The notes under the pieces: model-generated
Database searches by the model: none
What the model was told of the DNA's origin: nothing
Seen by the model: only the letters and a program-made list of their open reading frames with translations
Made by a program: the position numbers and the translations under genes
Sequence record: SRR2962707_3772
Strand: one strand, 5' to 3'
Length of the DNA stretch: 64,000 nt
Part shown: piece by piece, positions 52,177 through 53,382 of the stretch
Position numbering within the stretch: the stretch's first letter is position 1
How the letters are laid out: the number at the start of each line of letters is the position of its first letter

Positions 52177-53382
52177 ATGGCAATAAATACAAAAAAAGCG
52201 GAGAAGACAATAAAAACAAAGGTCGCCATTATTGGCTCAGGTCCAGCGGGCTTGATATTAGGACAACTGCTGCATAATCAGGGCATCGACAATGTGGTGA
52301 TTGACAATAAAAGCCAAGACTACATTCTTGGTCGTATTCGTGCAGGCGTACTAGAGCAAAGCACAGTGAACATCATTCGCGAGCTGGGCATTAGTGAGCG
52401 CATGGACCGTGAAGGGCTGGTGCATAATGGTTTTACGATGATTTGGGGGCAGGATTGCCAGCGTCAGCGTATTCCGTTTACCGAACTAACCGATGGCAAA
52501 ATCATGATGGTGTACGGACAAACCGAATTAACCAAAGATTTGTTGGCTGCGCGTAATGCTTGTGAAGCCTTGTCTTTTTATGACGCAGAAGACGTAACGC
52601 CGCATGATTTCTATAGCGAGTCGCCGCTCGTTAGCTTTAAGCATCAAGGGGAAGAATACGAAGTCCACTGTGACTATATCGCCGGTTGCGATGGCTTTCA
52701 TGGAGTATCGCGTCAATCTGTGCCTGTCAAGGAGATGACGGTGTATGAAAATGCGTACCCATTTGGTTGGTTAGGTGTATTGGCAGATGTGCCGCCTGTG
52801 AGTGATGAGGTGGTGTATCAGCATCACCAAGACGGTTATGTTTTATGCAGCATGCGCTCACCGACTCGCAGTCGTTACTATATCCAAGTGTCGTTGGATG
52901 AAAAGTTGGAAGATTGGAGCGTGGATCGCTTTTGGGCGGAGTTGAAGCGCCGCTTACCTGATGATTTGGCTGAGAAAGTGGTCACTGGGCCAACCTTAGA
53001 AATGAGCATTGCGCCGCTACGCAGCTTCGTTTGTGAGCCGATTCGTTTTGGTAATCTGTTTTTGGTTGGAGACGCCGCGCATATAGTGCCACCGACAGGC
53101 GCCAAAGGGCTCAACCTAGCAGCCAGTGATGCAAAAGAGCTATTCAATGGTCTGATGCAGTTTTACCAACAAGGCGATTCTGAAGGGCTTGAGCAGTATT
53201 CGAGCAAGGCGTTGGATCGCATCTGGAAAGCCGAGCGTTTTTCATGGTGGATGACCAGCTTGTTTCATAAATTGGACGACAGTGCGTTCCGTCAGAAAAT
53301 GCAACTGTCAGAAATTCATTATCTGGCCCATTCAAAAGCCGGTCAGACGACCATTGCCGAGAACTTTGTCGGCTTGGATTAG
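52177..53382 (+). CDS. pobA: 4-hydroxybenzoate 3-hydroxylase-family flavoprotein, V199/F385 variant; start uncertain
   Basis: [65 protein letters not shown] and [11 protein letters not shown] motifs. Confidence 0.92.

Follow-up and report, generated by a model that had tools for sequence, protein, structure and literature searches.

A rare PobA clade with Val/Ile199 and Phe385, the residue pair of an engineered gallate-forming enzyme, encoded with a LigAB-type dioxygenase in mostly marine bacteria

Within a stretch of 64,000 nucleotides from sequence record SRR2962707_3772 (hereafter the window) lies pobA2, a gene for a PobA-family monooxygenase that uses flavin adenine dinucleotide (FAD). 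A LysR-type regulator gene stands directly upstream, and divergent from it are ligA2 and ligB2, the genes for the two subunits of a LigAB-type extradiol dioxygenase (Table 1). The reading frame of pobA2 is intact. The protein scores 611.2 bits against TIGR02360 (4-hydroxybenzoate 3-monooxygenase; cut-off 538.7), and the PobA structures of Pseudomonas aeruginosa and P. fluorescens match its residues 12-400 with an E-value of about 1e-160. The top two matches in the PDB, 6ju1 and 1pxc, both have Phe at position 385 themselves, and 6JU1 is the structure of the Y385F mutant of P. aeruginosa PobA (PaPobA) (PMC9063093). Identity is 62% to P0079, a protein of the PaPobA group, 80% to a Colwellia protein, and 93% to the nearest named homologue, from Marinomonas pollencensis. 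The exact start of pobA2 is uncertain (ATG 52177 or TTG 52141), because a 9-nt difference from the nearest genome, Marinomonas G001, removes the ATG from which near relatives begin (MKTIKTKV...). The nine nucleotides are absent from positions 52141-52230 of the window (AEKTMKTIKTKV against AEKTIKTKV), and a GGAG lies immediately 5' of the ATA that corresponds to the relatives' start ATG.

We number residues as in PaPobA, from a HMMER alignment to PobA structures that is gap-free around both sites of interest. This alignment confirms the central claim of a preliminary description of the locus, that the protein has Val at position 199 and Phe at position 385: it reads PPVSDEVVY where the structures have PPVSHELIY, and TIAENFVGL where the wild type (1d7l) has TIAENYVGL. 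Tyr201, Ser212, Arg214, Tyr222, and Pro293/Thr294 had been described as intact, and the whole of the remaining first shell proves to be that of PaPobA (V47, H72, W185, Y201, L210, S212, R214, R220, Y222, P293, T294, A296, N300). The carboxylate clamp of Ser212, Arg214, and Tyr222 and the Pro293/Thr294 loop are also kept in all 19 members of the clade described below. The proton relay Tyr201-Tyr385-(water)-His72, however, is broken, as Phe occupies position 385, with only Tyr201 and His72 retained. By sequence, the pobA2 protein is a member of the PobA family, yet the canonical mechanism for activating 4-hydroxybenzoate (4HB) is incomplete in it. The protein ends in ...AENFVGLD followed by the stop codon, six residues short of the canonical form, and lacks the PYExxE tail.

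Table 1. Genes and codons at the pobA2 locus, with positions in the window
Feature	Position	Strand	Remarks
ALDH_a, aldehyde dehydrogenase	47432-48895	-	Downstream of ligB2, same strand
Coniferyl-alcohol-dehydrogenase-like short-chain dehydrogenase/reductase (SDR)	48920-49705	-	Downstream of ligB2, same strand
ligB2, catalytic beta subunit of LigAB-type extradiol dioxygenase	49736..50581	-	PF02900, NF009903
ligA2, protocatechuate 4,5-dioxygenase alpha subunit	50581..50982	-	TIGR02792, 133.9 bits (cut-off 108.6); PF07746
LysR-type regulator	51148..52050	+	Directly upstream of pobA2, divergent from ligA2B2
pobA2, PobA-family FAD monooxygenase	52177..53382	+	Val/Ile199-Tyr201-Phe385 clade; 401 aa counted from ATG 52177
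Val codon at PaPobA position 199	52810..52812	+	GTG
Phe codon at PaPobA position 385	53365..53367	+	TTT; 4 residues before the protein end
AraC-type regulator	53392..54357	-	Convergent with pobA2; PobR-like, 32% identical to the PobR beside the canonical pobA of G001
ALDH_b, aldehyde dehydrogenase	54412..55905	-	Conserved neighbor of clade pobA
459-aa protein with C-terminal OsmC-like domain	56049..57428	-	Conserved neighbor
IclR gene	57632-58486	+	
LysR gene	58471-59394	-	Divergent to the tautomerase operon
Second 4-oxalomesaconate (OMA) tautomerase paralogue	59512-60573	+	
TctC-like gene, then fused TctA/TctB-type transporter gene	60637-63719	+	

The consequences of changing these two residues have been reported in two enzyme backgrounds. 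The Y385F mutant of PaPobA hydroxylates 3,4-dihydroxybenzoate (protocatechuate, PCA) to gallate, while its kcat on 4HB is only 0.2 s-1, compared with 14.1 s-1 for the wild type (PMC9063093, Table 1), and the rationally designed L199V/Y385F mutant is a gallate former with higher activity (Moriwaki et al. 2019, cited in PMC9063093). The first natural PCA 5-hydroxylases, whose product is gallate, are those of a group named clade F (XaPobA, OtPobA, and PkPobA; structures 8JQO, 8JQP, and 8JQQ) (Katsuki et al. 2023, PMC10770758). In XaPobA, F385Y turns the preference back to 4HB and V199L lowers the activity on PCA (PMC10770758). Residue 385 can consequently be regarded as a switch between 4HB and PCA in both PaPobA and XaPobA. 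Given this, and a first shell that is otherwise identical, the likeness to the engineered double mutant drawn in the preliminary description is apt. Its statement that natural PCA-hydroxylating paralogues had been reported elsewhere also holds, which makes the novelty smaller, although pobA2 does not belong to clade F. Within the literature searched, with subscription journals outside its scope, Katsuki 2023 was the only report of natural PCA hydroxylases found, and no description of the clade to which pobA2 belongs was found.

This clade emerged from a sample made up of the pobA2 protein and the best 120 of 8000 scored candidates. Nineteen of these proteins combine Val or Ile199 with Tyr201, Leu210, and Phe385, and 99 have Leu199 and Tyr385; two more combine Val199, Trp201, Met210, and Phe385 with Gln72, and a single one has Val199 with Tyr385. 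On these counts, the pairing of Val199 with Phe385 does not look like chance. A maximum-likelihood tree of 77 rows (quick search, midpoint root, support from the Shimodaira-Hasegawa-like approximate likelihood ratio test, SH-aLRT) was then built from the 19 Tyr201/Phe385 proteins, two more translated from genome loci, both Trp201 forms, the single Val199/Tyr385 form, 25 of the 99 canonical matches (every fourth), the canonical PobA of G001, and 27 of the 73 full-length representatives of 50%-identity clusters (up to P0153). All Phe385 forms and the single Val199/Tyr385 form fall in one clade of 24 rows with an SH-aLRT of 100% and a stem of 0.33, which adjoins the PaPobA-type group. The clade keeps 100% local support in FastTree when columns 199, 201, 210, and 385 and the C-terminal tail are dropped, and the pobA2 protein falls within it with the trait columns in or out. 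Each of the 21 Tyr201 proteins that the tree places in the clade combines Val or Ile199 with Phe385 and ends in ...AENFVGLD. The phylogeny proposed in the preliminary description therefore shows that pobA2 is not a one-off.

The two residues differ in what they say about the family as a whole. Among the 73 cluster representatives, Val or Ile199 is found in 20, in 18 of them together with Tyr385, while Phe385 is found in only two, neither with an intact Ser212/Arg214/Tyr222 triad. Since Val/Ile199 is common across the family and Phe385 is rare, we regard Phe385 as the diagnostic change and Val199 as its partner. That the combination is found in 19 of 19 clade members, against Leu199/Tyr385 in 99 of 99 members of the sister group, argues for a fixed functional shift rather than drift. 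The same 19 proteins are set apart from the 99 canonical homologues by more than 40 other alignment columns, among which are those of the six residues missing at the C-terminus (further examples are T192V, N203H, R206D, K263M, L350F, and R33N/A). Arg33, in the helix that determines NADPH specificity (positions 33-36), is replaced in all 19, by Ala in 11, Asn in seven (among them pobA2), and Ser in one, often in combination with Lys34, and the coenzyme preference of the clade may thus differ from that of PaPobA. Two metagenome-derived proteins nested in the clade, P0019 and P0064, have Trp in place of Tyr201, Met in place of Leu210, and Gln in place of His72. They score 510 bits to PaPobA against 343 bits to XaPobA, and because they are nearer the former, their clade-F signature points to convergence and a second origin within this lineage.

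The clade is rare, mostly marine and gammaproteobacterial, and nested beside classical PobA. A degenerate DNA pattern for AENFVGLD plus stop, which would miss differing tails, was run against one genome for each of 185,579 species. It gave eight matches, two of them chance and six coinciding with a PobA gene in the genome concerned: Pseudomonas sp. BN102, P. akapageensis, Colwellia sp. RE-S-Sl-9, Exilibacterium tricleocarpae, M. pollencensis, and a SAR92-clade bacterium. Four of 10 pattern matches in metagenome contigs are true genes, three of the four from TARA samples, and the other six are without PobA. Several of the hosts are associated with algae or seagrass. Together with G001, the six hosts form a comparison set of seven genomes. 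G001 is about 99% identical to the window over positions 44029-63723; the similarity ends at 63723, just past the TctA gene, and the remaining 277 bases (63724-64000) are unmatched in the G001 region compared.

G001 has two PobA genes, with 55% identity between their products. The canonical one (LADTPPVNHELIY ... QYVGLPYE) adjoins an AraC-type pobR and a gene for a 341-aa protein; the other is the Val199/Phe385 copy, the window's pobA2. M. pollencensis and both Pseudomonas also have two copies, so that a separate canonical Leu199/Tyr385 PobA is retained in four of the seven genomes, while Colwellia, Exilibacterium, and SAR92 have one. Among 64 Marinomonas genomes, a PobA match was found in 43, with the Val199/Phe385 copy only in G001 and G028, both of which retain the canonical protein too. 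About 40 other Marinomonas species carry only the canonical Leu199/Tyr385 type, which is 54-58% identical to the pobA2 protein. The gene pcaH is present only in the two Pseudomonas among the seven genomes and was not found in G001; BN102 carries it on the contig of the canonical pobA, at a distance of about 12 kb, while in P. akapageensis the two genes lie on separate contigs.

LigAB of the window's type is found in all seven clade-bearing genomes, with 64-100% identity to LigB2, and in six of the seven it lies within about 20 kb of pobA. The distances from clade pobA are about 12 kb in Exilibacterium, about 20 kb in SAR92, and about 2.9 Mb in Colwellia. Orthologues of ligA2 (63-86% identity) occur in five other clade-bearing genomes; in P. 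akapageensis, only the ligB2-type gene was seen, ligA being outside the stretch examined. Both Pseudomonas have the Phe385 copy of pobA inside a lig cluster, which runs from ligA2B2-type genes through a ligC-like gene, OMA tautomerase, ligI, ligK, ligJ, and a LysR gene to pobA. G001 has a resident lig cluster elsewhere that is complete (ligJ-like, ligI-like, ligK, OMA tautomerase, ligA, and ligB), although its ligJ-like and ligI-like genes, both Amidohydro_2, are named from Pfam family and cluster position only. The resident LigB is 49% identical to LigB2.

We considered whether the adjacent LigAB is a dedicated gallate dioxygenase and rejected the idea. LigB2 scores 386 bits to LigB of Sphingobium SYK-6 (1b4u_B) against 271 bits to the gallate dioxygenase DesB, the enzyme has two subunits rather than one fused chain, and in other genera it travels with a ligC-like gene and ligI. 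LigB-family genes are carried by most Marinomonas genomes in the 64-genome scan. Frames of 420-440 aa with 41-43% identity to LigB2 occur in several other Marinomonas genomes (for example, G002:C18:222560, G034:C1:400482, and G024:C5:35442), and none of this size was found in G001. Since their length matches that of fused gallate dioxygenases of the GalA/DesB type, the genus may already be capable of gallate catabolism.

Taking residues, clade, and gene neighborhoods together, we put the probability at roughly 0.55 that enzymes of the pobA2 clade hydroxylate C5 of 4-hydroxybenzoates that are already substituted at C3 and that the product passes to the co-encoded LigAB. The pocket would have been remodeled naturally exactly as in the engineered L199V/Y385F enzyme. 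With the carboxylate clamp (S212, R214, and Y222) and the contacts to the 4-hydroxyl (Y201 and P293/T294) retained, a hydrophobic niche beside C3 would be opened by Val199, which is smaller, and by Phe385, which has no hydroxyl. A 3-substituted 4-hydroxybenzoate could then bind with its free C5 toward the flavin hydroperoxide and be hydroxylated there. PCA would yield gallate, probably with residual conversion of 4HB to PCA, and by the same logic, 3-halo-4-hydroxybenzoates would yield 5-halo-protocatechuates and vanillate would yield 3-O-methylgallate. Such 5-substituted protocatechuates would suit the co-encoded LigAB-type 4,5-dioxygenase rather than ortho-cleavage and could be fed, as OMA or 2-pyrone-4,6-dicarboxylate (PDC), into the resident lig pathway. 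Ortho-cleavage enzymes are not known to handle them. LigAB-type enzymes are reported to cleave PCA, gallate (to OMA), and 3-O-methylgallate, the last to 4-carboxy-2-hydroxy-6-methoxy-6-oxohexa-2,4-dienoate (CHMOD), a product that cyclizes to PDC (PMC8091115).

Of these reactions, the conversion of PCA to gallate is the best supported, by the mutant data, and we would expect with considerable confidence that gallate formation by the pobA2 enzyme can be measured in vitro. We are much less sure that it is the physiological role. A bifunctional enzyme that takes 4HB to PCA and on to gallate would reconcile most of the evidence, and XaPobA W201Y behaves in this way. The preliminary description proposed a PCA 5-hydroxylase or a bifunctional enzyme that takes 4HB to gallate, an activity that is a prediction, and its residue assignments are right; the LigAB and LysR context, though, indicates catabolism rather than gallate production. 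Because this context resembles the phbh clusters of Pigmentiphaga, discussed below, the physiological substrate may be another 3-substituted 4-hydroxybenzoate, instead of or besides PCA.

Several observations weigh against C5 hydroxylation or speak for an alternative, namely that pobA2 encodes an ordinary 4-hydroxybenzoate 3-hydroxylase serving the LigAB pathway. Val199 and Phe385 would be tolerated, other substitutions would compensate for the lost Tyr385, and PCA hydroxylation would be a minor side reaction, with over-hydroxylation to gallate harmless where LigAB cleaves gallate. The clade protein is the sole PobA in three of the seven genomes (Colwellia, Exilibacterium, and SAR92), and in Exilibacterium, its gene ends an operon of OMA tautomerase, ligI, ligK, ligJ, and pobA, downstream of a gene for a PcaK-like aromatic-acid transporter; both facts fit an ordinary hydroxylase. 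The partner LigAB is nearer the SYK-6 protocatechuate enzyme than DesB, and with its ligC-like and ligI company in other genera, plain PCA cleavage would explain the gene context. Taking PCA to gallate costs NADPH, with no obvious gain beside an existing PCA 4,5-pathway. Tyr201, His72, and the entire carboxylate clamp are kept, and in the first two the clade is unlike the characterized PCA hydroxylases of clade F. PobR-like AraC regulators adjoin clade pobA, the combination of Val or Ile199 with Tyr385 is common among the family representatives (18 of 73), and the tree that defines the clade comes from a quick search, is rooted at the midpoint, and has SH-aLRT values as its only support.

Nevertheless, we consider an ordinary hydroxylase rather unlikely. 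It does not sit well with two residues fixed against an equally strict sister group, with the rarity of Phe385 across the family, or with the approximately 70-fold loss of kcat on 4HB that Y385F costs PaPobA (PMC9063093). For 4HB, a canonical PobA is already available in four genomes, and in the two Pseudomonas, the Phe385 copy is the one in the lig cluster. About 40 Marinomonas species manage with canonical PobA only, though most of the genus has LigB-family genes. A nested subgroup (P0019 and P0064) has evolved the full signature of a PCA hydroxylase. For the fixation of both residues, the retention of the canonical copy, the placement in Pseudomonas lig clusters, and this convergence, we argue for a true functional shift and continue to favor C5 hydroxylation of 3-substituted 4-hydroxybenzoates.

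Which substituent matters in nature is a further question, on which some neighbors of clade pobA bear. A gene for a 1075-aa protein adjoins it in SAR92 (L030:11033-14260, genome G072) and on a TARA contig (L037:4096-7320), flanked by ALDH_b and a metallo-beta-lactamase-fold hydrolase. Its NpRdhA-like part (552 bits to 4ras) is followed, in a single fused chain, by a C-terminus like that of phthalate dioxygenase reductase (195 bits to 2pia), and the protein looks like a self-sufficient aerobic reductive dehalogenase. 4RAS is NpRdhA, the dehalogenase of 3,5-dibromo-4-hydroxybenzoate. With such a neighbor, the clade enzyme might be a dedicated hydroxylase for 3-bromo- or 3-chloro-4-hydroxybenzoate, derived from marine algae or from dehalogenases; the resulting 5-halo-protocatechuate would be cleaved by LigAB with loss of halide, and gallate formation would be an in vitro side activity. 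Kersten is said to have found in 1985 that PCA 4,5-dioxygenase releases halide from 5-halo-protocatechuates. The hydrophobic Val199/Phe385 niche suits a halogen and the hosts are marine. There is precedent in Pigmentiphaga kullae H8, where the PobA-type PHBH1 and PHBH2 start the catabolism of 3-bromo-4-hydroxybenzoate via 3-bromo-4,5-dihydroxybenzoate from similar gene clusters (PMC12016517), and in Comamonas BR60, where 5-chloroprotocatechuate is metabolized via the meta (4,5) pathway (PMC6379261).

We find a dedicated role of this kind quite unlikely. An NpRdhA-like gene is present in one of five genomes tested and absent from the other four, the window's nearest genome included. This also counts against our own broader reading, and a general link between clade and dehalogenase was rejected on the same count; it remains a hint only. 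The window has no halide-related gene, and its coniferyl-alcohol-dehydrogenase-like SDR and aldehyde dehydrogenases indicate lignin-type substrates. The clade-F enzymes related to those of H8 also hydroxylate PCA (PMC10770758), and the two functions are hence not exclusive.

The SDR and the two aldehyde dehydrogenases of the window module lend some color to another specialized role, that of a vanillate 5-hydroxylase. Vanillate would be turned into 3-O-methylgallate and, by LigAB, into CHMOD, which would give PDC and methanol without any demethylase; LigAB performs the ring-opening step (PMC8091115), and ligI is present in G001. The domain of VanA-type demethylases (PF19112) was found in none of five genomes, in which LigM-type (tetrahydrofolate) demethylases were not searched for, and this result leaves the vanillate route open without supporting it. 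A methoxy group, however, is far bulkier than the space gained by exchanging Leu for Val and Tyr for Phe, and the SDR and ALDH_a neighbors are conserved only in Marinomonas. We know of no PobA variant that hydroxylates vanillate. For XaPobA, the available part of its report gives no vanillate result (PMC10770758), and we hold vanillate as the dedicated substrate to be very unlikely.

The favored reading, C5 hydroxylation of 3-substituted 4-hydroxybenzoates in general, can be extended further, to a proposal we regard as unlikely but worth stating. The clade and LigAB could form a two-enzyme shortcut by which marine bacteria burn such compounds without a demethylase or a dehalogenase. After ring opening by LigAB, the substituent would leave spontaneously, as methanol from 3-O-methylgallate or as bromide or chloride from a 5-halo-protocatechuate, while nothing would leave from gallate, and all routes would meet at PDC or OMA. 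If this were true, aromatics derived from lignin and halogenated aromatics from algae would pass through a marine funnel not described before.

The module itself looks horizontally acquired. The genes pobA2 and ligB2 occur together in two of the 64 Marinomonas genomes and neither occurs in any other; copies of LigB2 with at least 95% identity are confined to these two, the next best match in the genus being 61%. Because of this confinement, pobA2, the LysR gene, and ligA2B2 behave as one acquired unit, which would have joined a canonical pobA and a lig cluster that were already resident. The case for transfer comes from distribution only, since composition shows no sign of it (GC 46.9% in the module against 45.7% in the window).

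Other neighbors are conserved to varying degrees. The LysR homologue lies directly upstream of clade pobA in M. pollencensis (91% identity) and Pseudomonas sp. BN102 (57%), and in P. akapageensis (57%) with an IclR-type gene in between. An AraC homologue also adjoins clade pobA in Colwellia (56%) and at the metagenome locus L036. Orthologues of ALDH_b (69-75% identity) adjoin pobA in Colwellia, SAR92, and TARA locus L037; no PDB relative of ALDH_b was found at E<=1e-100. The OsmC-domain protein and ALDH_b neighbor clade pobA in Marinomonas, Colwellia, SAR92, and TARA locus L037. Such proteins, of about 400-460 aa with the OsmC-like domain at the C-terminus and an N-terminal part left unassigned, thus recur beside clade pobA and ALDH_b in three genera, with two copies in Colwellia (L026:13844-15058 and 17898-19112) and one at L030:16796-18070. 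On the other side of the module, ALDH_a and the SDR (NF009092, 318 bits, cut-off 242) are conserved in M. pollencensis only. NCBIfam, applied to ten further neighbors in Pseudomonas BN102, Exilibacterium, and TARA locus L035, left seven without a family; the remaining three were an uninformative acyl-CoA ligase, TonB-dependent receptor, and histidine kinase.

Farther downstream in the window, the second OMA tautomerase scores 485 bits (cut-off 440), and is 41% identical to the copy in the resident lig cluster; its substrate could be OMA or a different tricarboxylate, for instance aconitate. The TctC-like gene next to it matches Pfam weakly, with 21.9 bits where the gathering score is 27. These tautomerase and Tct genes are conserved within Marinomonas only and are possibly part of the pobA2 module.

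If the predicted activity is real, nature has reached the same two-residue solution as engineers, L199V/Y385F, on a scaffold that has 62% identity to the flavoprotein hydroxylase studied best of all, and the more than 40 co-evolved positions may restore rate and coupling. The clade would then offer a set of natural starting points for the biocatalysis of gallate and pyrogallol and a clean case of convergence with the Burkholderiales enzymes of clade F. It would also tie the specificity of PobA to the choice of ring-cleavage pathway, given that LigAB handles gallate and 3-O-methylgallate (PMC8091115).

How the pobA2 protein relates to characterized enzymes can be summarized by what it shares with each. 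With canonical PobA (EC 1.14.13.2), it shares the fold family, the residues that bind FAD and substrate, and a score higher than the TIGR02360 cut-off; it differs in lacking Tyr385 of the relay, in having Val for Leu199, and in being a second copy in four of seven genomes. With engineered PaPobA L199V/Y385F, it shares both substitutions at the same aligned positions and an otherwise identical first shell. In contrast to that mutant, it is natural and clade-conserved, with its more than 40 extra clade-specific columns (including R33N/A) and its C-terminus six residues shorter.

Pigmentiphaga H8 is a parallel in gene context and, if the predicted activity holds, in reaction. Its phbh genes lie in phbh-pcaA-pcaB clusters, one of them with a LysR regulator (PMC12016517), much as pobA2 lies with ligA2B2 and a LysR gene. 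H8, however, is a soil betaproteobacterium from a polluted site. From their names, we assume pcaA and pcaB to encode 4,5-dioxygenase subunits.

Clade F is the closest functional comparison. Its members, mostly from Burkholderiales and less than 47% identical to PaPobA, have Val or Ile199, Trp201, Met210, and Phe385, together with Met72 and Ile75 (PMC10770758). Like the pobA2 clade, they are PobA-family proteins with Val/Ile199 and Phe385 that exist naturally as paralogues beside other PobA isozymes. The pobA2 protein, on the other hand, has Tyr201, Leu210, His72, and Phe75 and scores 322-325 bits to 8jqo and 8jqq against 534-538 bits to the PaPobA structures. These four residues and the 62% identity to P0079 of the PaPobA group rule out membership in clade F. 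A parallel from this group is XaPobA W201Y, which has the Val199/Tyr201/Phe385 combination of the pobA2 clade, with Met210 in place of Leu210, and is the form most active on PCA (kcat 8.1 s-1, against 0.79 s-1 on 4HB) (PMC10770758). While the kind of enzyme is already known, the pobA2 clade represents an independent lineage whose active-site solution is identical to the engineered one.

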